The notes: generated from the sequence alone by a model not told the origin. Shown: positions 12,742-45,432, counted from the stretch's first letter. The stretch is DNA of 64,000 nucleotides from an uncultured Thermoleophilia bacterium (GCA_963702475.1 CAVPCT010000003.1:544001-608000), one strand, 5' to 3'. Made by a program: numbers and translations.

Positions 12742-13575
12742 TCACGCCTTCCAGACCGCGATGTCGCCGACGTTGATGTCGGCGGTGGCGTCCACCGGCC
12801 CCATCTTCACCGGCAGGTAGCCGGCCTTCTCGATGAGCAGCGTGTACGTGCCCGGCTCCAGGTCGCGCAGCCAGAAATCGCCGTAGCTGTCGGTCGTGTC
12901 GGAGCAACTGGCGCCGCTCGTCGTGCTGGTCGCCGTGACCGTCGCGCCCTCGGTGCACTCGTCGGCCTCGCTGTCGTACACCGCGCCGGCGATGAACGGC
13001 CTCGGCAGGCCCTTGTAGAACACGCGCGGCTTGACGTCCTCGTGACCGGCCTTGAGCACGGCCTCGGCTTTGGCGATGAGCGCCACGATCTGCGGGTCGT
13101 CCTCGTCGCCGAACGCGAAGGCGCCCGTCGGACACGCGTCCACGCAGCGCGGCTCGGTCCAGCCGTCGTCCAGCAGGTGCGCGCAGAAGGTGCACTTCTG
13201 GGCGATGTTGAGCGAGTCGTTGAAGTAGATGACGTCCTCGTAGGGGCACGCCTCCAGGCAGAGCTGGTTACCGCGGCACTTGTCCGGGTCGATGATCACG
13301 GCCCCGTCGTCGCGCTTGTAGATGGCGTCGGCGTTGCAGGCCGGGATGCACGGGGCCTCGTCGCAGTGCTGGCAGATGCTGTGCGTGTAGGTGACCTTCA
13401 CCTTCGGCACCTGGCCGCGCACCATGTCGGTGATCTTGTTCCAGAACTGGCCGGTGTCGGGCTGCGGCTTGGCGATGGGCGACCAGTCGTTGGCCACGTG
13501 CTCGTCCTTGCAGGCCACCTGGCAGTTGTAGCAGCCGTTGCAGATGTCGTAGTCGATGACGAGGACCTTGCCCAT
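12742..13575 (-). CDS. Transhydroxylase small-subunit-like Fe-S protein (BthL-like) with C-terminal beta-sandwich
   Basis: CNGCYNCQVACKDEH, CQHCDEAPCIPAC, KCTFCAHLLDDGW, KPRVFYKGL, TDSYGDFWLRDLEPGTYTL; start overlaps upstream stop (TGATG). Confidence 0.88.
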   Translation of the reverse strand: MGKVLVIDYDICNGCYNCQVACKDEHVANDWSPIAKPQPDTGQFWNKITDMVRGQVPKVKVTYTHSICQHCDEAPCIPACNADAIYKRDDGAVIIDPDKCRGNQLCLEACPYEDVIYFNDSLNIAQKCTFCAHLLDDGWTEPRCVDACPTGAFAFGDEDDPQIVALIAKAEAVLKAGHEDVKPRVFYKGLPRPFIAGAVYDSEADECTEGATVTATSTTSGASCSDTTDSYGDFWLRDLEPGTYTLLIEKAGYLPVKMGPVDATADINVGDIAVWKA

Positions 13576-16175
13576 CACGCCCTCCCCCAGATGCAGGCTT
13601 CCAATCCGGGCCCGGCACACGGGTGGAACGGCTTCTCGAACGCTTCCGGATACTTGGCCTTGAGTGCTGCCATGTCGGTCTTCTCGATGTCCACGAGGAA
13701 GCCGCTGACGGCGTGGCCGACGGCGTTCTTCGAGGTGGTGTGCCGCGGGACGATGGTGTTGATGGCGCCGCCGCGGTCGAGCTCGCCGGGGACGATGGGG
13801 TCCCACTTGGCGCCGTGGTCGATGTACACGACGTCGGGCATGATGCGCTCGGTCACGTAGGCGCCGGAGAGCACGGCGCCGCGGTCGTTGAAGATCGTGA
13901 CCACGTCGCCGTCCTTGATGCCGTAGCGCTCTGCCGTGGACGGGTGCAGCCAGATGGGATGGTACTGGTAGCCGTCCGGACCGGTGACCTTGCCGGTGTT
14001 GGGGATCTCACGCAGCCAGGTGATGTCCTCGTGCTGCGAATGCACGCTCCAGCGTGGGTGGTTGGAGACCACGAGCAGCGGATACTTCTTGCTGCGCTCC
14101 GTCTCCAGCGTCTCCTCGTGACTGATGCCGCTGGCGACCCACTTGGGCACCGGCGGCCGCTCGAGGTCGTCGGGGAAGTTTTCCGTAAGGCCCTGCGCCT
14201 CGAACTCGAGCTTGCCGGTGGGCGTGGTGAGCGGGTACTTCTCGGGGTCCTTGTAGAAGTTGTAGAACCCGGCCGGCACGTCCTCCCAGCCGTTGTCCGT
14301 GGGGACCGCGTAGTAGCCCTTCTCGTTGAGCTCCTCCCAGGTGATGAGGTCCTCGCAGCGCGAGGTCTCGTACCCGTACTTGATGAGCTCGGGGATGGTC
14401 TTGCCGCCGGTGTACTCCTCCTTGAGGCCGAGGCGCTCGCTGAGCATGACGGCGATCTCGTAGTCGCTGAAGCTCTCGCCCAGCGGCTCGATGCACTTGT
14501 GCTCGGGAAAGAGGAGGTTGTACTGCCCGCTGAAGATGTCGCCGGCGATATCGTCCTCTTCGAGCTTGGTGTTCACGGGGAGGATGATGTCGGCCAGCAG
14601 GCAGTCGTTCTCCAGCCACGGGTGCTGCGCGAACATGAACTCGATGTCCGGGTGGCGCATGGCGTTCACGTAGTCGTTGCCCGAGTTCCAGCAGGTGATC
14701 CAGCTCGGCGAGTCGGTCCACACCATGTGGACCTTGCTGCAGCCGTCGGCCGGGTACTTGTAGTGCACGAACTGGTTGACGCGGTCGGCGGTCTCGGACT
14801 CGCAGCCGTACCAGTCGCACTCGCCCTCGAGGATGGCCTTGGGGATGTACGTCTTGGGGATGAACGACGGGTGGTTGCTCTCGTCCGGGTGGCCGCCGGT
14901 GTAGGCCTTGCGCAGGTACGGCACGCGCAGCGGCTTGGGCTGGGCGTACTGGTCCGGCTTGTCGAACAGGCCCCATTCGATCATCTTGGCCTGGTTCTGA
15001 CCGGGCTTGCCCAGGCCCTGCATGGCCAGGCAGATGCCCTGCAGGCGCGCCGGCTCGGTGGCGTAGGGGCCGCGGATGCCGGGCCCGCCGTTGCCGATGA
15101 CGACCGTGGTGCGCTTGCTCGCCCACTCGTCGGCGAGGGCCTTGATGACGCGCGCCTTGACGCCGCAGATGGGCTCCGCCCACTCCGGTGACTTCTCCAC
15201 GCCGTCCTCGTCGCCCATCACGTAGGCCTCGAACTTGTCGACGCCCACGGCGTGGGTGTCGAGGTACTCCTTGTCGTAGGTGCCCTGCTTGAACCAGCGG
15301 TGGCAGATCGCCAGGTACAGCGCGGCGTCCGTGTTGGGGAGCACCGGGATCCAGCGGTCGGCGTGCACGGCGGCGGCGTAGTTGAGGTCGGGGCACACGT
15401 AGATCTGCTTGATGCCGATCTCACTCCACCAGTAGCTCAGGCGGCTCGGGAGCTGGCCCTGCCAGCCCCACGGGGTGGTCTCCTGGTCGCAGCCCCAGAA
15501 CAGCAGCAGCTCGGCGTTCTTGGAGATGTCCCAGAGCAGGTTGCTCTGCTGGCCCTGGCCGACCGGCTCGCAGCCCCAGAAGTGCTTGTTGCCCCACCAC
15601 CAGCCTTCCCAGCTGTCGGGCTGGCGGATCTGGAGGGTGAAGCCGCCCCAGGCGCGCAGCAGCTTACGCCCCGCGCCGTGGCAGGCCTGGACGACCTTGT
15701 TCTCGCCGTGCTGGTCGCACTGGTACAGCAGGGCGGTCGGCCCGTACTTCTCCTTGATGCGCTGCATCTCGCCGGTGATGACGTCCAGGGCCTCGTCCCA
15801 GGAGATGCGCTTGTACTTGCTCACGCCGCGGTTCTGCGGGTTGCGCTCGCCGTTGGGGTCGAAGTCCACGCGCATCATGGGGTAGCGGATGCGCGCGGGC
15901 GAGTAGACGCGCTTCTTGTAGGCGATGCTGTACGGCGGGATCAGGGTCTTCATGCTGGGCTCGAACGTGCTGCCGCGCACCTCGAACTTCCAGGGGTTCA
16001 GATCCGCCTTCTTGTACTTCCAGTCGTAGTGCATGGGGCGGATGCGGATGATCTTGCCGTCCTTGACGTCGACCATCGACGCGTTGGAGCCGTTCTCCGG
16101 GACGCCGCAGAAGCTGATGTCACGGATCAGGGTCTTTTCCCCCGAGGCTCCGGTCCTGCTCATGTCCTCCGCCAT
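13575..16175 (-). CDS. Divergent pyrogallol transhydroxylase-like molybdoenzyme large subunit (paralog 1)
   Basis: FDPNGERNPQNRG, ISWDEA, PDSWEGWWWG (Ser ligand), HPRWSVH; no Tat signal, no FS0 cysteines; GGAGG SD. Confidence 0.88.
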   Translation of the reverse strand: MAEDMSRTGASGEKTLIRDISFCGVPENGSNASMVDVKDGKIIRIRPMHYDWKYKKADLNPWKFEVRGSTFEPSMKTLIPPYSIAYKKRVYSPARIRYPMMRVDFDPNGERNPQNRGVSKYKRISWDEALDVITGEMQRIKEKYGPTALLYQCDQHGENKVVQACHGAGRKLLRAWGGFTLQIRQPDSWEGWWWGNKHFWGCEPVGQGQQSNLLWDISKNAELLLFWGCDQETTPWGWQGQLPSRLSYWWSEIGIKQIYVCPDLNYAAAVHADRWIPVLPNTDAALYLAICHRWFKQGTYDKEYLDTHAVGVDKFEAYVMGDEDGVEKSPEWAEPICGVKARVIKALADEWASKRTTVVIGNGGPGIRGPYATEPARLQGICLAMQGLGKPGQNQAKMIEWGLFDKPDQYAQPKPLRVPYLRKAYTGGHPDESNHPSFIPKTYIPKAILEGECDWYGCESETADRVNQFVHYKYPADGCSKVHMVWTDSPSWITCWNSGNDYVNAMRHPDIEFMFAQHPWLENDCLLADIILPVNTKLEEDDIAGDIFSGQYNLLFPEHKCIEPLGESFSDYEIAVMLSERLGLKEEYTGGKTIPELIKYGYETSRCEDLITWEELNEKGYYAVPTDNGWEDVPAGFYNFYKDPEKYPLTTPTGKLEFEAQGLTENFPDDLERPPVPKWVASGISHEETLETERSKKYPLLVVSNHPRWSVHSQHEDITWLREIPNTGKVTGPDGYQYHPIWLHPSTAERYGIKDGDVVTIFNDRGAVLSGAYVTERIMPDVVYIDHGAKWDPIVPGELDRGGAINTIVPRHTTSKNAVGHAVSGFLVDIEKTDMAALKAKYPEAFEKPFHPCAGPGLEACIWGRA

Positions 16176-16249
16176 ACTGCTACCTCCTGCTCGACGGCTG
16201 AGGAGCCGTGGCGTCGACCGGCCTCCGGCTCCGTGTGACTCCGTGCGCA

Positions 16250-16408: not shown

Positions 16409-16927
16409 TCAGTACGCGCGCAGGGTGTCGAGCCGGGCGGCGAGGAAGGCGGCCAACCCGGCGCCGTCCTCGAGGCCGAAGCGGTGCTCGTGCTCCAGGC
16501 CCGAGTCCGTGACCAGGGCGATGGCCTCGCCGGGGGCGCACAGCGGCTCGGCGTGGCCGGCGCCGAGGCGGAACAGCTCCACGCGGTACGGCGCCGTGCG
16601 CTTGTAGCCTTCGGCGACCACGATGTCGAAGTCGCCGAAGTACGTCTTCACGATCTCGGCGAGTCCGAGCTCGCCGTCGAGCTTGGTGATGAACGCCAGG
16701 CGCTCGGGCGAGGAGATGGCGTAGGCACGGGCTCCGGCCTGGCCGTGCCGCCAGGAATCCTTGCCGGGGTGGTCGATCTCGAAGCTGTGCGCGTCGTGCT
16801 TGACGGTGCCGACGCGCAGGTCGAGCTTGACGAGCTCGGGCACGACCTTCTCGATGAGCGTGGTCTTGCCCGAGTCGCTCTTGCCGACGATGGCGACGAG
16901 GGCCGGCTGCTGCGGTGCGTCGTTCAT
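16409..16927 (-). CDS. mobB: Molybdopterin-guanine dinucleotide biosynthesis protein B
   Basis: GKSDSGKTTL, VKHDAHSFEIDHPGKDSWRH, EGYK. Confidence 0.92.
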   Translation of the reverse strand: MNDAPQQPALVAIVGKSDSGKTTLIEKVVPELVKLDLRVGTVKHDAHSFEIDHPGKDSWRHGQAGARAYAISSPERLAFITKLDGELGLAEIVKTYFGDFDIVVAEGYKRTAPYRVELFRLGAGHAEPLCAPGEAIALVTDSGLEHEHRFGLEDGAGLAAFLAARLDTLRAY

Positions 16928-16978
16928 GCGTGTGATGCTATGCGACGACGCGGTCCCGGCGAAACCCGGCCCGGCAGC

Positions 16979-18037
16979 TCACGCCTCGTACACCTCCACC
17001 TCGACCGCCTTCACCGACACGAACACGGGGCCGCCGTCGTCCAGGTGCATCGAGGCGACGGCGCCATGGGTGACCTCGGCGATGATGGGCAGGTCGCCGC
17101 TCACGTGCGCGCGCACGTGGTTGCCGACGACGTCGAGGTCCTCGACGACGCCTCTCCAGACGTTGCGCGGAGAGCCCTCGGGCAGCGAGCGGTGCAGAGC
17201 CACGGCGCGCGGCGGGATCACGGCGAACACTTCACCGCTGAGCGGGAGCGGGTCGGCGGCGATGAGGCGGTGGCCGCCGGTGAGTACGACGGCGCGCTCC
17301 TCGGCGCGGCCGCGGTACAGGTTCATGCCCAGGAGCTCGGCGACATAGCGCGAGCGCGGGTGCGACGAGAGCTCCTCCGGCGTGCCGGTCTGGACCACGC
17401 GCCCGCCCTCCAGCACGACAAGCCGGTCGGCGAGCGTCATGGCCTCGATGGGGTCGTGGGTGATCACGAGGCAGGTGCCCTCGTAGGCGGCAAGGTGACG
17501 GGAGAGCGCCCGCCGCAGGTCGGCGCGGGCGCCGGCGTCCATGGCGGCCAGCGGCTCGTCGAGCAGCAGGAGCCGCGGGTCGGTCGCCAGGGCCCGCGCC
17601 AGGGCGGCGCGCTGTGCCTGACCGCCGGAGAGGGCGCGCGGCTTTGCCGAGGCGCACGCGTCGAGGCCGACGCGCGCCAGCCAGGCCTGTGCGGCGGCGC
17701 GCGCGGCGGGGCGGTTCGCGCCGCGCGACCGCAGGCCGAACGCCACGTTCTCCAGCACCGTCAGGTGCGGGAACAGCAGGTAGTCCTGGAAGACGACGCC
17801 GATCGCGCGCTGCTCGGTGGGCACGTGGACGCCGGCGGCCGGGTCGTCCAGCACGCTTCCATCCAGGACGACCCGGCCGCCGTCCAGCGGGATCAGGCCG
17901 GCGAGCGCCCGCAGCAGCGTTGTCTTGCCGGCCGCGTTGGGACCGAGCAGGGCCACCACCGTCCCGCTCGCCACGGCGAGCTCCACGTCGAGCGCCAGCT
18001 CACCTTTGCGCAGCGCGACGGCCGCTTCCAGGCTCAC
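16979..18037 (-). CDS. modC: Molybdate ABC transporter ATPase with TOBE domain
   Basis: GPNAAGKT, LSGGQAQR, LLLLDEP; C-terminal TOBE; adjacent to modAB. Confidence 0.88.
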   Translation of the reverse strand: MSLEAAVALRKGELALDVELAVASGTVVALLGPNAAGKTTLLRALAGLIPLDGGRVVLDGSVLDDPAAGVHVPTEQRAIGVVFQDYLLFPHLTVLENVAFGLRSRGANRPAARAAAQAWLARVGLDACASAKPRALSGGQAQRAALARALATDPRLLLLDEPLAAMDAGARADLRRALSRHLAAYEGTCLVITHDPIEAMTLADRLVVLEGGRVVQTGTPEELSSHPRSRYVAELLGMNLYRGRAEERAVVLTGGHRLIAADPLPLSGEVFAVIPPRAVALHRSLPEGSPRNVWRGVVEDLDVVGNHVRAHVSGDLPIIAEVTHGAVASMHLDDGGPVFVSVKAVEVEVYEA

Positions 18038-18059
18038 GCGCTCGCCTCCGCCGGCCGGC

Positions 18060-18998
18060 TCATCTGCTCGGGAACCACCGGCCGCGAAGGGCGACCAGTA
18101 CCGTGAGGCAGATGGCCAGCATGACCAGGCTCAGGGCGATGGCCGAGTCGGGGTCGTTCTGCAGTGCGAGATAGACCGCCAGAGGCATGGTCTGCGTGCT
18201 GCCCGGCAGGTTGCCGGCGAAGGTGATGGTGGCGCCGAACTCGCCGAGGGCGCGGGCCCAGCCCAGCGCGGCGCCGGCGCCCAGCGCCGGCGCGATCAGC
18301 GGCAGGGTCACGCGCCGGAACACAGTCCAGCGTCCGGCGCCAAGTGTGGCCGCCGCGTCCTCGTAGCGCCGATCCATGGCGCGGATGCCGGCCTCCACGG
18401 TGATGATCACGAACGGCATGGCGACGAAGGCCTCGGCGACGATGACGCCGGCCGTTGTGAACGGGAGCGTGAGCCCGAAGGCGTGGTCGAGCACCTGACC
18501 CGCCACGCCGTTGCGCCCGAAGGCGAGCAGCAGCGCCACCCCGCCCACCACCGGCGGCAGCACCATGGGGAGCAGTACGACAGCCCGCACGAGGTTGCGG
18601 CCACGGAACGGTACGCGTGCGAGCAGCCAGGCGAGCGGGACACCGAGCACGAGTGATACGGCGAGGGCCCCGAAGGAGCAGACGAGTGACAGTCTGAGCG
18701 CGGTGAGCACGCCCGGCGCGCCGAGGTCCGAGAGCAGGTGGGGCCAGGGGGCGCGGATCACGAGGGCGGCCAGCGGCAGAGCCAGGAAGGCGACGGCGAG
18801 CACGGCGAGCGGTACGAAGCCGAATGGTGCGCCGGCGCCGCGGCGGGCCGGCGCCTCCGAGCCTCTGCGCTTCCGGCCCCGCGCCCACGGCGACGGCGCT
18901 CCGGCCGGCACGAGCGCGTCACCGGTCACCACGGCGAGGTTCGCCGCGGCCTCCCGCGTGCGCCCTCCCCCCTCGGTCATGTCTGCGCGCTCGTCCAT
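18060..18998 (-). CDS. modB: Molybdate ABC transporter permease
   Basis: LPMVLPPVVGG, ARALGEFGATITFAGN; start uncertain. Confidence 0.92.
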   Translation of the reverse strand: MDERADMTEGGGRTREAAANLAVVTGDALVPAGAPSPWARGRKRRGSEAPARRGAGAPFGFVPLAVLAVAFLALPLAALVIRAPWPHLLSDLGAPGVLTALRLSLVCSFGALAVSLVLGVPLAWLLARVPFRGRNLVRAVVLLPMVLPPVVGGVALLLAFGRNGVAGQVLDHAFGLTLPFTTAGVIVAEAFVAMPFVIITVEAGIRAMDRRYEDAAATLGAGRWTVFRRVTLPLIAPALGAGAALGWARALGEFGATITFAGNLPGSTQTMPLAVYLALQNDPDSAIALSLVMLAICLTVLVALRGRWFPSR

Positions 18999-19017
18999 GG
19001 TGCCCGGCGCCCTCAGC

Positions 19018-19872
19018 TCACTCCGCTGCCCCGAAGCCGAAGCGGCGGAGCGTCTGCTGCCCGGCGTCCGAGAGCACGTACTTGACGAACTGGTCGGCCA
19101 TGAACGTGGAGCCGGCCTCCTTCAGCGTCGCGATGGGGTAGGTGGCCGTGACGTTCTGGTCGCTGGGGATGGTCACCCCGCCGACCTCGCCGCCGGCGGC
19201 CCGCACGTCGCTCACGTAGACGATGCCCGCGTCGGCCTCACCGAGCGCTACCTTGGCGACCACGCCCTTGACGTTCTCCTCGAGCGACACCGGTTTCACC
19301 TTCACGCCCGCGCGCGCGAGGACGTCCGCGGAGTACCTGCCGGCGGGGACCTCGGGCGCGGCCAGGACGACCTTGAGGTCAGGGTCGGCCAGCGAAGCGA
19401 GGCCGGTGACGCCGAGCGGGTTCTCGGGCGCGACGGCGACGGCGAGCTCGTTGGTCGCGAACACCTGAGGAGTGGTCGTGTCGCCGCTGACCCTCTCCAT
19501 GGTCGACGTGTCGGCGGTGGCGAGCACATCGGCCGGCGCCCCTTGTCCGATCTGGGCCACCAGGTCCTGGCTCCCGGCGAAGTCGAACACGACCTTCACG
19601 CCGGGGTGGTCCTGCTCGAAGTCGGCGCCGATCTCGGTGAACGCCTCGCTCAGCGACGCCGCCGCGAGGACGTGCAGCGTGGTCGCATCGTCCCCGGACG
19701 AACCGCCGCAGGCAGCAGAACCCAGCAGGCTCGCGACGGCGAGGGCGAGGAACGCCGCGAAGGCAAGCCTGCGTGCGAGACAGGCGAGAGGTGGTGGCTG
19801 AGCCACCGGCCCGGCCGCCCGCGGCGGTCCTGCCCCGGCGGCCCGACCCGGCGGGGTCGAGCGACGAGTCAT
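19018..19872 (-). CDS. modA: Molybdate ABC transporter substrate-binding lipoprotein
   Basis: Lipobox SAAC, AAASL, FAGSQDL, VPAGRY, GIVYVSD. Confidence 0.9.
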   Translation of the reverse strand: MTRRSTPPGRAAGAGPPRAAGPVAQPPPLACLARRLAFAAFLALAVASLLGSAACGGSSGDDATTLHVLAAASLSEAFTEIGADFEQDHPGVKVVFDFAGSQDLVAQIGQGAPADVLATADTSTMERVSGDTTTPQVFATNELAVAVAPENPLGVTGLASLADPDLKVVLAAPEVPAGRYSADVLARAGVKVKPVSLEENVKGVVAKVALGEADAGIVYVSDVRAAGGEVGGVTIPSDQNVTATYPIATLKEAGSTFMADQFVKYVLSDAGQQTLRRFGFGAAE

Positions 19873-19880
19873 GTCCCTCG

Positions 19881-20018
19881 CTCCTTTCCAAGCACGGGGA
19901 GGTCGAGGCGTTTCCACCCCGGCCCACGGCGGCGACACCTCGCCGCCCCACGGTCTTTCCGTGGTACGGCCCGGCGCCCGTAGCAGGCGGGCTGCCGTAG
20001 GGCGAAGGGCTTGGAGTC
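19881..20018 (-). ncRNA. Moco (molybdenum cofactor) riboswitch
   Basis: Minus strand CUCCAAGC...CCUACG...CUACGG...GGCCG...GGAAA...GGGGUGGAAACGCCUC...CCUCCCCGUGCUUGGAAAGGAG; UCCAAGC/GCUUGGA P1 pairing abuts the modA SD; matches the recalled Moco RNA consensus. Confidence 0.8.
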
Positions 20019-20106
20019 GGACGGGCAGAAGGGTAGCACGGTGGTCGGCGGGTGTGCCAGTCGGCCGGCGGCCTTGTGGCCGGGGCCGCGAGGCCCGCGG
20101 GGACAC

Positions 20107-21243
20107 CTACCGGTCGAAGCCGGCGAGATCGAAGCGCCGGACCAGGTACTCGGCCAGGGCCGGCACCTCGTCGCGGGCGAAGCGGTGGTGGTGTGGCAGG
20201 TCCTCATCGGTGACGAGCGCCAGGGTGACCTGCGCGTCGAGCAGCGGGGCCTCACGGCCCTCGCCGGGGCTGAAGACCTCCACGACCCAGGGCGTCTCGT
20301 GGCGGTACCCTTCGCACACCACGACGTCGTAGGAGCTGAAGTAGCGCGAGACGATCCTGTGCAGGCTGGGCTCGCCGGTCAGGTCGCTGACGAAGGCGAA
20401 CCGCGATGCCGATCCGACGGCGTAGGCGTGCGCGCCGGCCTGGCTGTGACGCCACGAGTCCTTGCCCGGAGTGTCGATGTCGAAGCGTGCCACGCGCTTG
20501 ATGGCTGCCACGCTGAGGCCGCGGCGCGTGAGCTCCGGGATGAGCCTCTCGACGAGTGTCGTCTTGCCGCTCCCCGAGCGGCCGACGACGCCGAGCACGA
20601 GCGGCCCGGAGCCCGTGGCGCCGGGTCCGGCGGCCTCGTCCGGCGCCTCGCCGGCGAGGCGCCGCGCCTCGGCCCAGTCGCCCGGCGTGTTGACGTTGAA
20701 GAACGGCGCCGGGTCGGCGAACGGGATCCGGCGCACCCGCACCAGCGGGAAGAGATCGAGGATGCTGTGCGCGCCGGCGGCCAGCAGCGCCTCGATGTGC
20801 GGCAGGCAGCCAGGCGCATACACGGCGTGCAGCGGCTCCCAGTGGTCGCCGACGACCGGCGTCGCGACGTCCACGCCGGCGGCCTCGCGAAGCACACGCT
20901 CGACGGCCGAGGTCTGCGGAAACGCCACGTCGGTCGCCAGCGCGAAGAACGGCTCGCCGTACCGCGTGAGCACTGAGGCGATCCCGGCGAGCGGCGAGCC
21001 GGTGACGACGTCGGGCACGACCTCCACGCCTGCCGGCAGGTCCTCCGGCGCCTGTGCGGCGTCTCGCACCGAGAGCGCGACGACAGGGAAGATGCCGCGC
21101 AGGAACGCGAGGTTGCGCTGCAGGAGGGTCTCGCCGCCCAGGCTGAGGCGTCGCTTGTCGCGCCCCAGGCGGCGTGCCTCGCCGCCGGCGAGCAGGGCGG
21201 CGACGCGGATGCCGTACGTGTCGATGCGGGCGGACTGGCTCAC
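20107..21243 (-). CDS. mobA: MobA-MobB fusion (Moco guanylyltransferase plus MobB)
   Basis: N-half LLAGGEARRLGRDK...EPLHAVY...FFNVNTP; C-half GRSGSGKTTL...PGKDSWRH. Confidence 0.9.
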   Translation of the reverse strand: MSQSARIDTYGIRVAALLAGGEARRLGRDKRRLSLGGETLLQRNLAFLRGIFPVVALSVRDAAQAPEDLPAGVEVVPDVVTGSPLAGIASVLTRYGEPFFALATDVAFPQTSAVERVLREAAGVDVATPVVGDHWEPLHAVYAPGCLPHIEALLAAGAHSILDLFPLVRVRRIPFADPAPFFNVNTPGDWAEARRLAGEAPDEAAGPGATGSGPLVLGVVGRSGSGKTTLVERLIPELTRRGLSVAAIKRVARFDIDTPGKDSWRHSQAGAHAYAVGSASRFAFVSDLTGEPSLHRIVSRYFSSYDVVVCEGYRHETPWVVEVFSPGEGREAPLLDAQVTLALVTDEDLPHHHRFARDEVPALAEYLVRRFDLAGFDR

Positions 21244-37930: not shown

Positions 37931-38761
37931 ATGACCAACCCCATCATCACGGCGGCGCTGACCGGTCCTGTCGCCACCAAGGCCGACAACCCCGGGCTGC
38001 CGGGCGGCGTGGCCGAGATCGCCGAGGCCGCGAAGGCGTCGTACGACGCCGGCGCGGCGGTCATCCACATCCACCTGCGCGACGACCGCGGCGAGATGAC
38101 CGCGGACCTCGACGTGGCGAAGCGCACCGTCGAGGCCGTCCGTGAAGTCTGCCCCGGCATCGTCCAGCTCTCCACCGGCGGCCTGCAGTTCACCTACGAG
38201 GAGCGCATGAGCCTCGTCGAGGCCAGGCCGGCCATGGCCACACTGAACCCGTGCACGATGACGTTCGGCATGGCCGAGTTCAAGAACCCGCCCAAGCAGA
38301 TGATGGAGCTGGCGGCGCGCATGATCGAGCTCGGGGTCAAGCCGGAGGTGGAGATCTACGACACCGGCCACCTCGACTTCATGCTGTACCTGCTGAAGAA
38401 GGAGCTGCTGCTGGAGCCACTGCAGGTGTCCTTCGTGATGGGCGTGCACGGCGGCATGCGCGGCGACCCCGCGCTGCTCTCCTGGCTGGTGCGCGAGTTG
38501 CCTGAGGGCACGAGCTGGCAGGTCATCGCCGTGGCCGGGGCCAACCTGCCCATGACCACCATCGGCCTCGCCATGGGCGGCAACGCGCGCACCGGCATGG
38601 AGGACACGCTGACACTCGAGAAGGGCGTGCCGGCGGAATCCAACGCGCAGCTTGTCGAGCGTCTCGTACGCATCGCCCGCTCGATGCAGCGCGAACCGGC
38701 CGCCGTGGCCGAGGTCGTCGAGCGGCTGAGGCTGCACCCCGAGCTGGTCAACCCGCAGTGA
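37931..38761 (+). CDS. BKACE/DUF849 beta-keto acid cleavage enzyme; candidate triacetate cleavage enzyme
   Basis: ITAALTG, GAAVIHIHLRD, QLSTGG, GGNARTGMEDT. Confidence 0.9.
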   Translation: MTNPIITAALTGPVATKADNPGLPGGVAEIAEAAKASYDAGAAVIHIHLRDDRGEMTADLDVAKRTVEAVREVCPGIVQLSTGGLQFTYEERMSLVEARPAMATLNPCTMTFGMAEFKNPPKQMMELAARMIELGVKPEVEIYDTGHLDFMLYLLKKELLLEPLQVSFVMGVHGGMRGDPALLSWLVRELPEGTSWQVIAVAGANLPMTTIGLAMGGNARTGMEDTLTLEKGVPAESNAQLVERLVRIARSMQREPAAVAEVVERLRLHPELVNPQ

Positions 38762-38768
38762 TCGTTGG

Positions 38769-39036: not shown

Positions 39037-40422
39037 ATGAGCTCTGACGAACGCACCACCAACGAGACCGGCATGCACAAGCCGATCACGCGGCGCGACT
39101 TCCTCAAGGTCGCCGGCGTGGGCGGCGCCGCGCTCGGCCTTGCCGGCGGTCTCAGCGGCGCTCTCGCGGCGTGCGGCACCACCAGCGCCACCGACGACGG
39201 CGGCGGAAGCACCTCCGGCGCCGAGGGGCGCGAGATCAAAGTCGGCTTCGTCGCGCCGCTCACCGGGCCGCTGGCCGCCTTCGGTGAGGCCGACCAGTTC
39301 TGCGTCGACCAGTGGAACGCCGCCGTCAAAGACGGCCTCGCGACCGCCGACGGCGCCGTGCATCCCATCAGCATCATCATGAAGGACTCGCAGTCCGACT
39401 CGAACCGGGCGGCGCAGGTGGCCGGCGACCTCATGACCAACGACGCCGTCGACATCATGATGGTGGCCTCCACGCCCGACACGGTCGTGCCCGTCGCGGA
39501 CCAGGCCGAGGCGCTCGGCGTGCCCTGCGTCTCCAACGACTGCCCGTGGCAGGCGTACTACTTCGGCCGTCAGAAGGACCCCGCCAACCCCGTGCCGTTC
39601 AAGTGGACCTACCACTTCTTCTGGGGAACCGGCGAGGCCGCGAACGTCTTCATCGACCTCTGGGACAAGCTCGACACAAACAAGAAGGTCGGCGTGATGT
39701 GGCCGAACGACGCCGACGGCAACGCCTGGTCTGACCCCAAGACCGGCATGCCGAGCTTCTACGGGCCGGCCGGCTACACCTTCGTGAACCCCGGCAAGTT
39801 CCAGAACGGCACAGAGGACTTCACCGCCCAGATCGGCAAGTTCAAGGCGGCCGACTGCCAGATCCTCAACGGCGTCATGATCCCGCCGGATTTCACCAAC
39901 TTCTGGAAGCAGTCCTACCAGCAGGGCTTCAAGCCTGTCGTCGCGACCATGGCGAAGGCCATCCTCTTCCCGTCGGCCCTCGAGGCGCTCGGCGAGATCG
40001 GCTACGGCCTCACCTCTGAGGTCTGGTGGTCGCCGAACCACCCGTACAAGTCGTCGCTCACCGGCGAGACCTGCCAGCAGATAGGCGACGCGTACGAGAC
40101 GTCCACCGGCAAGCAGTGGACCCAGCCGATCATGCATTACGCCGTGTTCGAGGTCGTCGCCGACGCCATCAAGCGCACCGAGAACATCGACGACAAAGAA
40201 TCGATCCTGAGCGCCGTCGTGGGGACCAGCGTCGAGACCATCTGCGGCCCCGTCAACTGGGGCGGCGGCACCAACAACCCTGTCCAGAACGTCAGCACGA
40301 CCCCGCTCGTGGGCGGCCAGTGGATCAAGGGCACCAAGTACCCCTTCGACCTGGCCATCGTCGGCAACTCGCTCGCCGCCGACATCCCGCTCACGGGGGA
40401 GCTGCAGCCGATCGAGTACTGA
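39037..40422 (+). CDS. Liv-type ABC substrate-binding Tat lipoprotein 2
   Basis: TRRDFL, LAAC; clear paralog of 26732-28111 (NDCPWQAY, PPDFTNFWKQS). Confidence 0.9.
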   Translation: MSSDERTTNETGMHKPITRRDFLKVAGVGGAALGLAGGLSGALAACGTTSATDDGGGSTSGAEGREIKVGFVAPLTGPLAAFGEADQFCVDQWNAAVKDGLATADGAVHPISIIMKDSQSDSNRAAQVAGDLMTNDAVDIMMVASTPDTVVPVADQAEALGVPCVSNDCPWQAYYFGRQKDPANPVPFKWTYHFFWGTGEAANVFIDLWDKLDTNKKVGVMWPNDADGNAWSDPKTGMPSFYGPAGYTFVNPGKFQNGTEDFTAQIGKFKAADCQILNGVMIPPDFTNFWKQSYQQGFKPVVATMAKAILFPSALEALGEIGYGLTSEVWWSPNHPYKSSLTGETCQQIGDAYETSTGKQWTQPIMHYAVFEVVADAIKRTENIDDKESILSAVVGTSVETICGPVNWGGGTNNPVQNVSTTPLVGGQWIKGTKYPFDLAIVGNSLAADIPLTGELQPIEY

Positions 40423-40500
40423 TCTCGATCGATCCGGCATGCAGTCCGGCGCTGACCGAGCACGCGAGGAGGTCCCTGTGATGCGGGGCGGTGATAACCC

Positions 40501-41226
40501 GTGACCGTAGTCCTGGAGACAGTCGGTCTCTGCAAGTCCTTCGGCGGCGTCAAGGTCATCGACGACCTGAGCGTCAAGCTGTACGGGGGAGAAGCGCTGG
40601 GCATCGTCGGGCCGAACGGCGCCGGCAAGACCACCCTGTTCAACCTGATCACCGGCGTCTACCGGCCCGACGAAGGCCGGGTCATGTACAAGGATCGGGA
40701 CGTCACGCACGTGAGGCGTCACGACCGCTGCCGCCAGGGCATCGGTCGCACGTTCCAGATCCCCAGGCCGTTCGGCGACATGAGCGTGTTCGAGAACGTC
40801 CTGGTCTGCGCCGCTTACGGTCGCAACCTGAGCGAGCGCGCGAGCTACCGGCGCTGCGTCGAGACGCTCGAGCTCACCGGCCTCGCGGCCAAGGCCAACA
40901 AGCAGGCGGGCGCCCTCCCGCTGCTCGACCGCAAGCGGCTCGAGCTCGCGAGGGCGCTCGCCGGCGACCCCACCGTGCTCCTGCTGGACGAGATCGCCGG
41001 AGGCCTCACCGACTCCGAGGTCGAGGACCTCATCCAGACGGTCAAGGACCTGCACGCACAGGGCATCTCCATCATCTGGATCGAGCACATCGTCCACGCC
41101 CTGCTCGCCGTGGTGCAGCGCATCGTCGCCATCAGCTTCGGGCGCAACCTCATCGAGGGTGACCCCAACGAGGTCATGTGCAGCGACGAGGTGCAGGCCT
41201 GTTACATGGGGGGGACGCCGCTATGA
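40501..41226 (+). CDS. LivG-like ABC ATPase
   Basis: GPNGAGKTT, RTFQ, LLLDEIAGGL, IEH. Confidence 0.92.
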   Translation: MTVVLETVGLCKSFGGVKVIDDLSVKLYGGEALGIVGPNGAGKTTLFNLITGVYRPDEGRVMYKDRDVTHVRRHDRCRQGIGRTFQIPRPFGDMSVFENVLVCAAYGRNLSERASYRRCVETLELTGLAAKANKQAGALPLLDRKRLELARALAGDPTVLLLDEIAGGLTDSEVEDLIQTVKDLHAQGISIIWIEHIVHALLAVVQRIVAISFGRNLIEGDPNEVMCSDEVQACYMGGTPL

Positions 41227-41921
41227 CCGTCCTCGAGCTCAAGGAAGTCGACGTCTTCTACGGCGACTTCCAGGCCCTCTTCAAGGTCTCGTTCAAGGTC
41301 GAAGGGGGCCAGACCTTCGCCTGTATCGGCGCCAACGGCGGCGGCAAGTCCACGCTGCTCCGCACCATCGCTGGTTCCATGCGTCCCCGCTCGGGCGAGG
41401 TCCTGTTCCACGGCAAGCCGGTCGACTCCGTCCCTGCCCACGAGCGCGTCAAGATGGGCATCGCCCTGGTCCCCGAGGGGCGCCGCGTCTTCCCCAGCCT
41501 GAGCGTGCTGGAGAACCTGCAGATCGGCGCCTACGGCGGGCGCAAGGGCGACTGGAGCGTGGAGTCGGTGCTGGAGCTGTTCCCGCTGCTGAAGCCGCTG
41601 CTCAAGCGCCAGGCCTCGAGCCTGTCCGGCGGTGAGCAGCAGGCCCTGGCCATCGGGCGGGCGCTCATGTCCAACCCGGAGCTCCTGTTGCTGGACGAGG
41701 TCTCGCTGGGCCTCGCTCCCGTGGTCATCAAGCGCATCTACGAGGCCATGGTGCACCTGGTGGGCACCGGAACGACCATCGTCGTGGTCGAGCAGGACGT
41801 GCAGCACGTGCTCACGGTCGCCGACTACGTCGCCTGTTTCCTCGAGGGCCGCATCAGCCTCGAGGGCAAGCCGAGCGAACTGACCTCGGAAGCTATCACT
41901 GCAGCCTACTTCGGGATGTGA
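41223..41921 (+). CDS. LivF-like ABC ATPase
   Basis: GANGGGKST, VPEGRRVF, LSGGEQQ, VEQ. Confidence 0.92.
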   Translation: MTVLELKEVDVFYGDFQALFKVSFKVEGGQTFACIGANGGGKSTLLRTIAGSMRPRSGEVLFHGKPVDSVPAHERVKMGIALVPEGRRVFPSLSVLENLQIGAYGGRKGDWSVESVLELFPLLKPLLKRQASSLSGGEQQALAIGRALMSNPELLLLDEVSLGLAPVVIKRIYEAMVHLVGTGTTIVVVEQDVQHVLTVADYVACFLEGRISLEGKPSELTSEAITAAYFGM

Positions 41922-41925
41922 TGTC

Positions 41926-42798
41926 ATGACTTGGGTCAACGTCGCTCTTCAGGGCATTCTCCTGGGCGGGTTGTACGCCCTGTTCGCCACCGGCCTCGCC
42001 CTCGTGTTCGGCGTGATGCGCATGGTGAACCTCGCGCACGGCGACCTCGGCATCCTCGCCGCCTTCGTCTGCCTGTTCGTCGTGCAGTCGCTCAGCCTGG
42101 GCGTGATCTGGGCGGGCGCGATCACGATCGTCATCATGTTCGTCGTCGGCTATCTGCTCCAGCGGGGGCTGCTCAACTTCACCCTGGGCAGTGACGACAC
42201 CCGGCCGATCGTGGTGACGTTCGGGTTGTCCATCATCATCCAGAACGGCCTCATCATGTGGTGGTCGGCCGACTCCCAGGGCCTCGACGCAGGCGCCATC
42301 GAGAACGCCAGCATCACCATCAGCAAGCAGCTCGCGATCGGCTGGTTCCCACTGCTCGTGTTCGTCCTCTCCATCGTCGTGATCGCCGTGCTGCAGCTCT
42401 TCCTCAACCGCACCAAGATGGGCCGCGCCTTCCGCGCCACGTCGGACGACCGCGACGCGGCGGAGCTCATGGGCATCAACAACAAGCACATCTACGGGCT
42501 CGCCATGGCGGTCGCATTGGCCATCGTGGCGCTGGCCGGCGTGCTCCTCGCGGTGCGCAGCACGTTCGACCCGACGCAGGGGTCCTTTCGCCTGATCTTT
42601 GCCTTCGAGGCCGTGATCATGGGTGGCATGGGCTCCATCTGGGGCACGCTGCTGGGCGGCGTCGTGCTGGGTGTCGCGCAGACCGTCGGCTCCCAGGCGT
42701 TCGGCGCCGGGTGGGGCCTGTTCGTCGGCCACGTCGTGTTCCTCACCGTTCTGGCGCTGCGGCCCAGCGGCTTCTTCGCGAAGACGGTGACGGCATGA
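41926..42798 (+). CDS. LivH-like ABC permease
   Basis: GLALVFGVMRMVNLAHG, GRAFRA, MGGMGSIWG. Confidence 0.92.
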   Translation: MTWVNVALQGILLGGLYALFATGLALVFGVMRMVNLAHGDLGILAAFVCLFVVQSLSLGVIWAGAITIVIMFVVGYLLQRGLLNFTLGSDDTRPIVVTFGLSIIIQNGLIMWWSADSQGLDAGAIENASITISKQLAIGWFPLLVFVLSIVVIAVLQLFLNRTKMGRAFRATSDDRDAAELMGINNKHIYGLAMAVALAIVALAGVLLAVRSTFDPTQGSFRLIFAFEAVIMGGMGSIWGTLLGGVVLGVAQTVGSQAFGAGWGLFVGHVVFLTVLALRPSGFFAKTVTA

Positions 42799-43898
42799 CG
42801 GCCCAGGACAAACCCATGAGCATCACCGACTTCACCGTCTCGCGCTCCCGGAACATGCACCGCTGGGTGCTCATCATCTCGATCCTCGTCGTGATCGGTC
42901 TCGCCAGCGTGCCGTTCTGGTCAACCGTGGCCGTGTGCCGCACCATGGTGACCTTCTTCACCCTGCTCGCCCTGGCTCAGATGTGGAACCTGCTCGGCGG
43001 CTACGCCGGCCTCGTCTCCGTCGGCCAGCAGGCGTACATCGGCCTCGGCGCCTACGGCCTCTGGCTCATCGGCGACGTGCTCGGCCTGAGCCCGTTCATC
43101 GCCGTCTTCCTGGCCGGCGGCCTGGCTGCCCTCATCGCGCTGCCCGTGGCCCCGCTCATGTTCCGCCTCAAGGGCGGGTACTTCGCCATCGGCACGTGGG
43201 TGGTGGCCGAGGTCCTGCGTCTGATCGTCGCCAACATCGACGCCACCGGCGGCGGCTCCGGCAAGACGGTCATCTCCGCCGCCAAGCTGCCGCTCACCAC
43301 CCGCATCCCCGGCACGTACTGGCTGGCCATGACCGTGGCCGTGGGCTCCATCCTTCTCGTGTGGTTCCTGCTGCGCTCGCGCAACGGCCTGGCGCTCACC
43401 GCCATCCGTGACAACGAGCTTGCCGCCCAGAGCTCCGGCGTCAACGTGTTCCGCACGAAGCTGTACGTGTACCTGCTGTCCGCGTTCGGCTGCGGCGTCG
43501 TCGGCGCCGTGGTCGCCATGAACCTGCTGCGCATCCAGCCGGCGGCGGCGTTCAGCATCAACTGGACCGCCTACGCCATCTTCATCGTGGTGATCGGCGG
43601 CTTCGGCACCATCGAAGGCCCGATCATCGGGTCGGTCATCTACTTCGCGCTCCTGCAGACCCTGAGTCAGTACGGCACGCTGTACATGCTGCTGCTCGGC
43701 GTCATCGCCGTCATCATGGTGACGCTGGCCCCCAAGGGCATCTGGGGCTGGGTCGTGAAGCGCTGGGACCTGCACCTGTTCCCGGTGCGCCGCAACCTGA
43801 TGCTCGACGCATCGGTGCTCGGTCCACCGGACGAACCCAAGAAGCCGGCGGCGACTGGGGTCGCCTCCGGCAACGGCGCGGCCACAGAGGCCGGCTGA
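42795..43898 (+). CDS. LivM-like ABC permease
   Basis: WNLLGGYAGLVSVGQ, GGYFAIGT, AIRDNE, GGFGTIEGP. Confidence 0.92.
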   Translation: MTAQDKPMSITDFTVSRSRNMHRWVLIISILVVIGLASVPFWSTVAVCRTMVTFFTLLALAQMWNLLGGYAGLVSVGQQAYIGLGAYGLWLIGDVLGLSPFIAVFLAGGLAALIALPVAPLMFRLKGGYFAIGTWVVAEVLRLIVANIDATGGGSGKTVISAAKLPLTTRIPGTYWLAMTVAVGSILLVWFLLRSRNGLALTAIRDNELAAQSSGVNVFRTKLYVYLLSAFGCGVVGAVVAMNLLRIQPAAAFSINWTAYAIFIVVIGGFGTIEGPIIGSVIYFALLQTLSQYGTLYMLLLGVIAVIMVTLAPKGIWGWVVKRWDLHLFPVRRNLMLDASVLGPPDEPKKPAATGVASGNGAATEAG

Positions 43899-44031
43899 CG
43901 AGTGTGGGGTGCGGCGCCGGCCGCCTCAGGGCCGCCGGCGCCGCACCACATCGGGTCCGGCGCGGCTGTAGAGGGGGGCCGCGGCGGGTCTTCTCACCAC
44001 TCGTGGGGCCCCCGCGTGGGCGGGGCGCGTG

Positions 44032-44826
44032 ATGGAGGGCTTTGTGAACAACGATCACGCCGAAGACTCCCGGGAGTCGCGGAACGGCGTCCAGGTGCTG
44101 AGCCGTGCCGCGACGATCCTGCGCCTGCTGGCGGCGGACTCGTCCGGCGGGCTCACCTTCAGTGAGCTCGTGGCGAGGGCCGGTCTGCCGCGGACCACCG
44201 TGCATCGCATCCGTTACGCCCTGGAGCATGAGGGCTTCGTGGCCACCGACGAGGCCACCGGTCGCCTGCGACTCGGCCCGGGCCTTCTTCAGCTGGGCGT
44301 GGCCAGCCGGCGCAACCTGCCCGCGGTGGTGAAGCCGTACCTCGAGCGCCTGTCCACCGAGATCAACGAGACCGTCGACCTCACGGTGCTCGACGGTATG
44401 AACGTGCTCTTCATCGCGCAGATCCCGGCGCCGCAGCGTGCCCTCATGGTGGTCTCTCACGTGGGCGCCAGGTTCCCGGCCTTCTGCACCGCCAACGGAA
44501 AAGCCCTGCTGGCGCAGCTGCCGGCCGACGAGCTCAAGCGCCGGCTTCCGCGCAGGCTCGAGACGCCGGCGCGGCACCAGACCGTCACGCGAGACGACCT
44601 GCTCAAGGAGCTCGCCGAGGTGCGCGAGACCGGCGTCGCGTACGATCGCGAGGAGCATCACGTGGGCATCTGCGGGGTCGGCGTGACCATCACCGACATG
44701 GACGGCACCAAGGCGTCGGTGTCGGTGCCCATGCCGACCGCCCGCTTCGCCGAAGACGCCGACACGGTGGTTGCAGCGCTCGTGCGGGTGCGCGACGAGA
44801 TCCTCGTCGCGTTGCACAGCGTCTGA
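44032..44826 (+). CDS. IclR family transcriptional regulator 4
   Basis: VQVLSRA, GLPRTTVHRI, NETVDL, CTANGKALLA. Confidence 0.92.
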   Translation: MEGFVNNDHAEDSRESRNGVQVLSRAATILRLLAADSSGGLTFSELVARAGLPRTTVHRIRYALEHEGFVATDEATGRLRLGPGLLQLGVASRRNLPAVVKPYLERLSTEINETVDLTVLDGMNVLFIAQIPAPQRALMVVSHVGARFPAFCTANGKALLAQLPADELKRRLPRRLETPARHQTVTRDDLLKELAEVRETGVAYDREEHHVGICGVGVTITDMDGTKASVSVPMPTARFAEDADTVVAALVRVRDEILVALHSV

Positions 44827-44841
44827 CGCGGGAGGTGCGTG

Positions 44842-45432
44842 ATGACGGGCGCCGACGAGACTCCACTGGTGGTCGCCGTGGTGGGCAGCCCCCGCGCCAG
44901 GGGCAACACGTCCCTGCTCGTGGACGCCGCGCTGGCCGAACTGGAGCGGCGCGGCGCCCGGGTGCGCAAGGTGCTCCTGGCCGAGCACGCCGTCGCCCCG
45001 TGCCTGGGCCACCAGGAGTGCGGCCGCTTCAAGGTCTGCCCGCAGCGCGATGACGCCGCGGCCGTCCTGGACCTGGTGTATGAAGCCGAGGGGCTCCTGC
45101 TGGCCAGCCCCGTGTACTACGAGAACGTCACCGCCCAGATGAAGGCGTTCATGGACCGGAACGTGTTCCGGTACGCGCACGACGAGTGGCTGCCGGCGCG
45201 TGCCGTGGGGTTGCTGGCCGTCACCGCCGAGACAGGGTTGGACGACGCGCTCGACGCCATGCGCCGGTACGTGGCGCTGTCCACTGTGGCCGAGGTGCCC
45301 ACCGTGACCTGCGGCGTGTTCGCGGACGGGCTCGGCACGGACGGGCGGGGCGTCGTGGCGCAGCAGCCCGACGCCCTGGCTGCGGCGCGCACCCTGGCCG
45401 TCGACCTGGCGGCCGCTCTCGATCTGCGCTGA
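44842..45432 (+). CDS. Flavodoxin-fold FMN protein (iron-sulfur flavoprotein-like)
   Basis: GSPRARGNT, CLGHQEC-x5-C...DD, ASPVYY, MKAFMDR. Confidence 0.85.
   Translation: MTGADETPLVVAVVGSPRARGNTSLLVDAALAELERRGARVRKVLLAEHAVAPCLGHQECGRFKVCPQRDDAAAVLDLVYEAEGLLLASPVYYENVTAQMKAFMDRNVFRYAHDEWLPARAVGLLAVTAETGLDDALDAMRRYVALSTVAEVPTVTCGVFADGLGTDGRGVVAQQPDALAAARTLAVDLAAALDLR

Follow-up and report, generated by a model that had tools for sequence, protein, structure and literature searches.

Why should an uncultured Thermoleophilia bacterium carry, within about 33 kb, three genes related to the large subunit of a pyrogallol transhydroxylase (AthL), two related to its iron-sulfur small subunit (BthL), a molybdenum supply set, dehydrogenase- and cyclase-type enzymes, a transporter and four IclR regulators? 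We addressed this question for positions 12742 to 45432 of a 64,000-nucleotide stretch of assembly GCA_963702475.1 (CAVPCT010000003.1:544001-608000), the whole of which is called the window here. A first reading of the DNA by itself, referred to below as the sequence-only reading, had proposed a co-regulated funnel converting several polyhydroxybenzenes to acetyl-CoA and acetoacetate, and had considered it a candidate new system. We find it likely that the region is one regulated polyhydroxybenzene catabolic island of an anaerobic, uncultured Thermoleophilia-type actinobacterium, and sequence comparison indicates that this island is real and conserved. The gene types listed at the outset are all present at or near the places assigned to them (Pfam, NCBIfam and tblastn). 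The funnel held up in outline, as homology, residues, synteny and promoters point to transhydroxylase-type enzymes leading into a four-step route under common control. Its novelty as a system did not, given that the pathway was characterised in 2023 (PMC10470551) and that several AthLS copies per genome were predicted in 2013 and 2016 for metagenome-assembled genomes from sediment (PMC3971608, PMC4959651).

In the mechanism that we propose, phenols would be taken up by two binding lipoproteins of the twin-arginine translocation (Tat) type and a Liv-type ATP-binding cassette (ABC) importer, and cytoplasmic AthL-type molybdenum enzymes would shift ring hydroxyls to yield phloroglucinol. AthL2/BthL2 would act as the canonical pyrogallol-phloroglucinol transhydroxylase, while AthL3, fused to an SCP2-fold domain, and the divergent AthL1/BthL1 would most likely act on further isomers or on the tetrahydroxybenzene co-substrate. 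The NADPH-type short-chain dehydrogenase (SDR) SDR_B would reduce phloroglucinol, a cyclase-family enzyme would open the ring by hydrolysis, a 3HCDH-type enzyme would oxidise the ring-opened product to triacetate, and a BKACE enzyme would form acetoacetate and acetoacetyl-CoA from triacetate and acetyl-CoA. The operons would be switched jointly by four IclR repressors through a common 15-bp palindrome located behind each promoter, and modABC together with mobA/mobB would provide the molybdenum cofactor. We infer the substrates, the direction of flux, the repression by IclR and the roles of AthL1, AthL3, SDR_A, the cupin and the flavoprotein.

In Clostridium scatologenes, the anaerobic phloroglucinol pathway consists of a phloroglucinol reductase (PGR, an SDR), a dihydrophloroglucinol cyclohydrolase (DPGC, a cyclase), an (S)-3-hydroxy-5-oxohexanoate dehydrogenase (TfD, 3HCDH) and a triacetate acetoacetate-lyase (TAL, BKACE) (Zhou et al. 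2023, PMC10470551), and all four enzyme families are encoded between 32.4 and 38.8 kb of the window, on the plus strand. The DPGC-like protein (36433..37395, Cyclase family PF04199), read from the ATG at 36433, has Trp20, Tyr22 and the segment HTGTHADAPRH (metal motif HxGTHxDxPxH) as in CsDPGC, and the two aromatic residues stand where isatin hydrolase has Ile and Leu (PMC10470551). Likewise, the TfD-like protein (34423..35370, 3HCDH_N and 3HCDH) has Ser122, His143 and Asn194 at the numbering of CsTfD, an enzyme type that is further marked by the loss of the Lys/Asn in contact with CoA. The TAL-like protein (37931..38761) matches BKACE with 294 bits and Kce (2y7d) with 196 bits, its Val14 being aligned to the amino-binding Glu14 of Kce, a position occupied by Trp (Trp16) in CsTAL. 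SDR_B, the candidate phloroglucinol reductase (33603..34400, adh_short_C2), is of the NADPH type ('VVVTSRR'). At least 603 relatives of the long AthL form represented by AthL3 were found in species-representative genomes, and the best 80 were retained as loci L001-L080. Two or more of the four pathway genes occur in 12 of these 80 loci, or in 8 of the 32 with full flanks, and an SDR_B-type SDR accompanies DPGC, TfD and TAL in 11 of the 12.

Could a different beta-keto-acid pathway, such as lysine fermentation or one of the carnitine type, be the true setting of the cyclase, 3HCDH and BKACE genes? The best NCBIfam match of the BKACE protein is indeed the Kce model (270 bits, below its cut-off of 382), and SDR_B has no specific model; in NCBIfam, no model exceeded its cut-off for any AthL or phloroglucinol-pathway enzyme of the window. 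However, the amino-binding Glu of Kce is absent, Pfam revealed no lysine-fermentation genes in the window, the diagnostic DPGC and TfD residues are present, and AthL/BthL accompany these genes in many lineages. We consider such a pathway highly improbable and retain phloroglucinol degradation as the preferred function. The region resembles the C. scatologenes system (PMC10470551) in having the four families clustered together with a transporter and regulators, in the identical numbering of the DPGC and TfD residues and in a BKACE devoid of the Kce Glu. It differs by an ABC importer in place of a major-facilitator transporter, by its IclR regulators, a second, NAD-type SDR, a cupin, the Val of the TAL-like protein and the linkage to AthL genes. 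The second SDR, SDR_A (32557..33318, plus strand, adh_short_C2), has 'VAVADVD' with an NAD-type Asp after the first strand and was found among L001-L080 in the Thermoleophilia-type loci L003, L004 and L006 only, bar one weak match in L030. The cupin (37527..37877, plus strand, 116 aa, Cupin_2) lies between the DPGC and TAL genes and recurs, across phyla, in 10 of the 12 long-AthL loci that have two or more pathway genes. An Atlas search returned generic cupin clusters only, the best NCBIfam match, below its cut-off, was a 113-aa Mycobacterium tuberculosis model named beta-D-galactosidase, and the available part of the 2023 pathway text (PMC10470551) makes no mention of a cupin.

The second question concerns the enzymes that would deliver phloroglucinol. 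AthL1, AthL2 and AthL3 share the order of AhtL-like first domain, molybdopterin oxidoreductase domain and domain binding molybdopterin guanine dinucleotide (MGD), and the best solved-structure match of all three is 4v4c_A (AthL2 in two pieces, AthL3 from position 29230). AthL/BthL of Pelobacter acidigallici converts pyrogallol to phloroglucinol, a hydroxyl being passed on to pyrogallol from 1,2,3,5-tetrahydroxybenzene with no net redox change. Residues were mapped to 4v4c_A via the intact orthologue P0005, in an alignment of the AthL proteins of the window with seven intact paralogues of the same genome. We take His144, Tyr152, Arg153, His154, Asp174, Ser175, Trp176, Trp354 and Tyr404 to be the nine active-site residues of the Pelobacter enzyme, with Ser175 presumably being the molybdenum ligand and Tyr152, Arg153, His154, Trp354 and Tyr404 lining the pocket for substrate and co-substrate. 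His144, Asp174, Ser175 and Trp176 are retained in AthL1, AthL2, AthL3 and all seven other intact paralogues. The AthL enzymes of the window are probably cytoplasmic, because they lack a Tat signal, as does the Pelobacter enzyme. Further likeness to the latter (4v4c/4v4d/4v4e) is found in the family and its domain order, in the pocket of AthL2 and in the ferredoxin and Ig-like (immunoglobulin-like) parts of BthL1 and BthL2. Where the sequence-only reading had spoken of three transhydroxylase paralogs, three AthL-like genes do exist, but they are not equivalent copies: by their pocket residues they are three distinct types, two of them uncharacterised.

AthL2 (21914..24518, plus strand) is of the canonical type, although the assembly splits it over two frames by an extra base at 22814-22819. 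Its N-terminal part matches AhtL-like_1st with 90 bits (Pfam), and its C-terminal 562 aa match 4v4c_A with 745.9 bits, as compared to 678.9 bits for the equivalent part of AthL3. All nine presumed active-site residues are identical to those of the Pelobacter enzyme; since the pocket residues are kept here and altered in AthL1 and AthL3, AthL2 alone is classed as canonical. The two BthL-like genes that had been reported were both confirmed, and each overlaps the stop of its own athL gene. BthL2 (24515..25348, plus strand) has Fer4_11 and a weak CarboxypepD_reg match (E 0.0033) and is 41% identical to BthL1 over residues 74-351. BthL1 (12742..13577, minus strand), composed of Fer4_11 and a C-terminal Ig-like CarboxypepD_reg domain, matches 4v4c_B, the small subunit of pyrogallol hydroxytransferase, with 156 bits; it starts at ATG 13575 or GTG 13578, preceded by GGGGGAGGG.

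AthL3 represents a long form of about 1000 aa. It had been thought to start at about 29230, but the actual start is at 28541 (28541..31554, plus strand, with the frame shifted by a single base near 29036 and again near 29052), which adds an N-terminal domain of 150 aa. The last 774 aa match 4v4c_A with 954 bits. Nearly all of the best 120 homologues listed have about 970-1025 aa, and P0005 has 1004 aa at 94% identity. A model of the N-terminal domain (predicted local distance difference test, pLDDT, 80.9) gave fold matches to UbiJ-SCP2 (6h6o, E 3.6e-6) and then to the SCP2 domains of alkylsulfatases, and Pfam SCP2 matched weakly in 5 of 21 long-form members; on the strength of the model, the N-terminus of AthL3 appears to be an SCP2-fold domain. 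In this domain AthL3 differs from the Pelobacter enzyme, which lacks it, the alignment beginning at residue 2 of the solved chain, and it also differs by the pocket substitutions R153W, H154L and W354F. Record titles assign long-form relatives to Thermoleophilia, Acidobacteriota, Desulfobacterota, Chloroflexota, Firmicutes and Alpha-, Beta- and Gammaproteobacteria.

AthL1 (13575..16172, minus strand) is a bis-MGD catalytic subunit (group B) of 865 aa with AhtL-like_1st, Molybdopterin and Molydop_binding domains, and matches 4v4c_A with 448 bits. Unlike the Pelobacter enzyme, it has a different pocket, in which four of the nine residues are lost (Y152A, R153C, W354G and a gap at Y404), and it shows only about 35% identity to the canonical group. 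It groups with two paralogues on contig 9 (50-58% mutual identity), the identity to the remaining AthL being again about 35%. The best 120 homologues listed have 849-887 aa and are 81-95% identical; their named sources comprise Thermoleophilia, Actinobacteria, Dehalococcoidia/Chloroflexota and Aminicenantes, with generic annotation throughout. In metagenome contigs, 167 relatives of AthL1 were reduced to 79 loci, some of which possibly represent one organism sampled twice, and a BthL1-type gene directly follows AthL1 in 60 of them. Among the 43 AthL1 loci of at least 9 kb, a canonical-group AthL was present in 22, two or more pathway genes in 10 and a Liv-type ABC set in 11. Because metagenome loci share the trio of AthL1-type enzyme, canonical AthL and phloroglucinol genes, we regard it as a recurrent module and not as a quirk of one genome.

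The altered pocket of AthL1 raises the possibility that AthL1/BthL1, and perhaps AthL3, are water-dependent hydroxylases of the resorcinol hydroxylase type, which would oxidise a di- or trihydroxybenzene, pass electrons via the Fe-S subunit to an acceptor and thereby add an oxidative entry to the phloroglucinol route. This would fit the loss of four of the nine pocket residues, Tyr404 and Arg153 included, with the region of the molybdenum ligand Ser175 kept, and it would also fit a family, RhL/PgtL, that includes hydroxylases (PMC10100899). Moreover, a Psr-like Mo/FeS/NrfD complex with an Rrf2 regulator, a possible electron outlet, adjoins bthL1 in the window and in the AthL1 loci L088 and L114. 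On the other hand, AthL1 is repeatedly accompanied by a canonical-type AthL and by phloroglucinol genes, and not by the hydroxyhydroquinone dehydrogenase route, and AthL1 has neither a Tat signal nor a membrane subunit of its own. A hydroxylase therefore appears to us the less probable assignment, though a serious one, and a role of AthL1 in transhydroxylation is preferred.

Are AthL2 and AthL3 intact genes? If both were pseudogenes of a decaying family, only AthL1 and the phloroglucinol genes would be functional. Both are frame-broken in the assembly, AthL2 with a phase switch of third-position G+C at about 22.8 kb, AthL3 with two single-base shifts within 20 bases. Short-read contigs from four public runs of four studies were compared with the assembly over 21900-31600. 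The base at 22814 is absent in run X1 (one contig) and run X2 (two contigs), and the base at 22818 is absent in X1 and X10 (one contig each, with 2 mismatches in 244 and 226 bases, respectively); in each case the frame is restored. Given that contigs from three runs and three studies lack the extra base, the AthL2 break is read as an assembly artefact, probably from a mixed consensus, and the two variants GGCAAG and GGGCAG in other contigs suggest that GGGCAAG of the assembly is such a mixture. For AthL3, the comparison recorded no indel at either 29036 or 29052, and the contigs listed included no near-identical piece spanning this site. As the contigs compared did not settle its two frame changes, AthL3 could be broken in the strain.

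Across the genome (4.3 Mb, nine contigs), a Viterbi frame tracker called 398 same-strand frame changes without a stop in 4403 coding segments, or about one per 11 kb; this is a rough figure, as the tracker recovered four of four checkable window sites and is otherwise unvalidated. Two earlier detectors had been discarded, one for 426 mostly spurious calls and the other for being over-strict and missing the AthL2 break. Four calls fall into the window. Frame changes are not limited to AthL genes, since an unrelated DNA methylase (N6_N4_Mtase, 61100-62222, minus strand) is split over two frames near 61670 as well. The AthL-like genes account for about 11 of the approximately 398 calls in about 39 kb, about three times the genome average, and of this gene family, with 15 members in the genome, 7 have frame changes, some of them three or more; owing to this density, some AthL paralogues may be real pseudogenes. 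For AthL2 and AthL3, in contrast, third-position G+C that remains at 0.94-1.0 before and after the AthL2 break, the near-identical contigs without its extra base, the genome-wide frequency of frame changes and intact orthologues at 86-94% identity argue against decay. We consider it very unlikely that both are pseudogenes; the break of AthL2, and perhaps those of AthL3, look like assembly indels.

Whether these genes act together depends on their arrangement and control. Given that the window has about 70% G+C, genes were called by third-position G+C and then searched with Pfam and NCBIfam. A minus-strand unit reads, from 21243 down to 12742, mobA-mobB, modA, modB, modC, mobB, athL1, bthL1. 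On the plus strand, a small open reading frame (ORF), athL2, bthL2, iclR_a, binding lipoprotein a, athL3 and iclR_b are followed by SDR_A, SDR_B, the 3HCDH-type gene, iclR_c, the cyclase, cupin and BKACE genes and then by binding lipoprotein b, two ATPases, two permeases, iclR_d and an FMN-reductase-like gene. A search for sigma-70-like sites gave five in the stretch from 21.2 to 40.2 kb, whereas shuffles gave 1.0 +/- 1.1; all five are plus-strand sites in intergenic regions. They precede athL2, iclR_a (25550), binding protein a (26637), athL3 and binding protein b (38823, the best with 11/12). Just behind or beside each of them lies a palindrome of the form kTCCGy-N3-rCGGAm. Its 15-bp copies are at 21840-21854, 25602-25616, 36268-36282 (upstream of the DPGC gene), 38769-38783, 38800-38814 and 38872-38886 (the last three near the importer promoter), and an operator-like copy with two mismatches, GTTCCGATATTCGGAAC, is located before athL3 (28472..28488).

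With up to one mismatch, KTCCGYNNNRCGGAM matches the window 10 times, compared with 5.75 +/- 2.4 times in shuffled sequence; the count of 10 was reached by 6 of 100 shuffles and is not significant alone. Six of the 10 are intergenic within the island, including all three perfect matches, and 7 of the 57 non-coding matches of the whole genome fall into the 17-kb stretch of the island. The palindrome also lies upstream of another AthL paralogue (C9:108667/108700). The shared operator and the co-regulation that had been claimed are thus both supported by promoter-linked palindromes and an architecture common to the island. Four IclR genes together with shared palindromes fit an IclR-type regulon, and the island is probably co-regulated. 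Elsewhere in the genome (C5:498444-498668), three copies of the palindrome stand within 230 bases ahead of genes for an acetyl-CoA synthetase, a Pat-like protein acetyltransferase and a transporter of the major facilitator superfamily; acetate activation may belong to the regulon of the island.

Gene order is shared with related loci. L003 has the order of the window from athL2 through the ABC genes at 67-91% identity, L004 and L006 nearly so, and L088 is syntenic from the Psr-like enzyme through BthL2. In two of the L003, L004 and L006 genomes, an AthL1 orthologue (94%) lies about 11 and about 17 kb from AthL3. Could the cofactor genes with AthL1, AthL2, and AthL3 with the phloroglucinol genes then be independent units for unrelated substrates, brought together by chance or in one lineage and lacking common regulation? 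Full synteny is limited to the close relatives L003, L004, L006 and L088, which are hence not independent, the palindrome count of the window does not reach significance by itself, and four different IclR genes suggest separate inducers. Yet the components recur, rearranged and at much lower identity, in other lineages (L115, L128, L146 and L151; L015, L033 and L041), the promoters of the island share one architecture, and palindromes are concentrated there. Mere juxtaposition is in our view unlikely, and a single regulated island remains the preferred reading.

Apart from the palindrome count, the possible AthL3 break and the frame-change density with the pseudogenes that it may imply, several further points weigh against such an island. 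All functions were assigned from homology and context, and none of the listed data sets that contain the stretch is recorded as RNA. SDR_B has 'TSR' ('TSRR') where phloroglucinol reductases have TR(S/N), the motif at the 2'-phosphate pocket by which these NADPH-dependent SDRs are marked (PMC10470551), and its best solved relatives are gluconate 5-dehydrogenases; 5g4k, which may or may not be a phloroglucinol reductase, matches SDR_B with 149 bits. The TAL-like protein has Val instead of the Trp of CsTAL. No BthL gene is adjacent to athL3, although in 51 of the 58 evaluable long-form loci BthL follows AthL immediately; in several Thermoleophilia-type long-form loci, BthL is found upstream of AthL instead. 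Finally, no UbiD-type decarboxylase is encoded in the window, in agreement with the earlier statement that no gallate decarboxylase is visible there, and the only PF01977 match of the genome is on another contig. The UbiD gene was considered as a gallate decarboxylase, which its neighbours (cytochromes, a Rex-like regulator and an aminotransferase) do not support.

The remaining genes of the island would serve supply, uptake and regulation. The mobA-mobB fusion, modA, modB, modC and mobB (16409..21243, minus strand; Pfam MobB, ABC_tran+TOBE, BPD_transp_1, SBP_bac_11 and NTP_transf_3+MobB) are placed upstream of athL1-bthL1 on the same strand and probably account for molybdate uptake and synthesis of the guanine-dinucleotide cofactor; mob/mod genes also adjoin AthL1 in L088, L089, L092, L097, L099, L114, L120 and L134. 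Solute-binding lipoprotein a (26732..28111, plus strand, Peripla_BP_6) has a Tat-type signal ('TRRDFL...LAACG'). The Liv-type importer (39037..43898, plus strand) consists of the Tat-lipoprotein binding protein b, two ATPases and two permeases (Pfam Peripla_BP_6 + TAT_signal, ABC_tran x2 and BPD_transp_2 x2). IclR a (25611..26528), IclR b (31617..32411, its position kept in L003, L004 and L006) and IclR c (35396..36220) are all on the plus strand and have HTH_IclR and IclR_C. IclR d and the FMN-reductase-like flavoprotein (44029..45432, plus strand, the latter at 44839-45432; Pfam) are counted as putative members of the island by their position alone. The small ORF between mobA and athL2 (21417..21704, plus strand, 95 aa) has a good ribosome-binding site and a copy at the equivalent place in L088 (71% identity), and had no match in Pfam.

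Beyond bthL1 lies the Psr/Ttr-like set (7263-12549), comprising a molybdenum oxidoreductase of 910 aa, an Fe-S subunit, an NrfD subunit and the divergent Rrf2 regulator; besides its presence next to AthL1/BthL1 in L088 and L114, more distant Mo/FeS pairs occur in L103, L106 and L112. It could be an electron outlet for AthL1, or unrelated. On its 5' side are the housekeeping genes clpC, radA, carD and ispD. Just past the other end of the island, a V4R-GGDEF diguanylate cyclase is encoded (46106-47467), and phenol sensing by this protein is possible, as V4R domains bind small molecules.

How much of this has been described before? Co-located phloroglucinol gene clusters number 12,225 and include Mycobacterium and uncultured Actinobacteria (PMC10470551), and a 2026 preprint annotates pgthAB in SAR116. 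The RhL/PgtL family consists of Ser-ligated bis-MGD enzymes acting on hydroxybenzenes (PMC10100899). RhLS of Aromatoleum/Azoarcus anaerobium and DbhLS of Thauera aromatica AR-1 belong to the same branch (PMC10100899), a likeness drawn from their description; they feed the hydroxyhydroquinone route in nitrate reducers, of which no gene was recognised in the window. The catechol dehydroxylases of Eggerthella and Gordonibacter (Dadh, Cldh and others) are likewise an expanded bis-MGD set acting on plant phenols in an anaerobic actinobacterium. Identity of the window enzymes with them was rejected, since the dehydroxylases form a separate clade near acetylene hydratase (PMC7028382), whereas the window enzymes have the AhtL-like first domain and 4v4c_A as best match. 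In the literature searched, which excluded most subscription journals, we found no description of a further AthL clade that accompanies the canonical enzyme, of a cupin in such clusters, of phloroglucinol breakdown in Thermoleophilia (as judged by titles) or of an SCP2-bearing pyrogallol enzyme. Pathway and enzyme family are already known, here in a lineage for which we found no description, together with two uncharacterised enzyme variants and accessory genes. The undescribed parts are the SCP2-fused AthL, the AthL1 clade as a recurrent partner and the conserved cupin.

The nearest proteins and loci are assigned by their sources to uncultured Thermoleophilia, Actinomycetes or Actinobacteria, and the expansion of AthL extends beyond the window. 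The 15 AthL-like genes of this genome set it apart from Pelobacter. Twelve of them are on contigs C2 and C9 (L083-L086), several with BthL and six with frame changes. Their surroundings encode two further BKACE enzymes, an old-yellow-enzyme-type reductase, an HpaB-like protein and parts of an ADP-forming acyl-CoA synthetase, along with one fragment each of 3HCDH and of Amidohydro_2, the latter a family with non-oxidative aromatic decarboxylases among its members. This genome and 150 others of the class Thermoleophilia were searched for the AthL-specific first domain, which was found in 31 of the 151, with 16 matches in the genome of the window. In the family to which the window belongs, 10 of 25 genomes had 1-6 matches each, and in another family 20 of 25 genomes were positive, 19 of those with 9-25 matches.

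To our knowledge, only one transhydroxylase has ever been studied. The long form with its SCP2-fold domain and at least 603 relatives, together with the conserved AthL1 clade, suggests that the single Pelobacter enzyme is not representative of environmental forms. The AthL1 clade is very strongly conserved and stands repeatedly beside canonical-type AthL and phloroglucinol genes. We put forward, as a possibility held tentatively, that AthL1/BthL1 is a distinct molybdenum enzyme and obligate partner of the canonical transhydroxylase, which makes or recycles tetrahydroxybenzene or carries out the shifts from hydroxyhydroquinone to phloroglucinol, that the SCP2 domain holds the co-substrate at the funnel of the active site, and that the three types would make up common environmental machinery for the turnover of trihydroxybenzenes without oxygen. 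Cell extracts of Pelobacter massiliensis reportedly converted hydroxyhydroquinone to phloroglucinol in 1992, and we know of no assignment of this activity to genes. Concrete enzymes would thereby become available for two old questions, the source of the tetrahydroxybenzene co-substrate and the identity of the hydroxyhydroquinone-isomerising enzymes. Of all pools of plant carbon, tannins and flavonoids belong to the largest, and what becomes of them under anoxic conditions bears on carbon storage in peat and sediment. Part of the class Thermoleophilia is likely to consist of anaerobic users of polyphenols.

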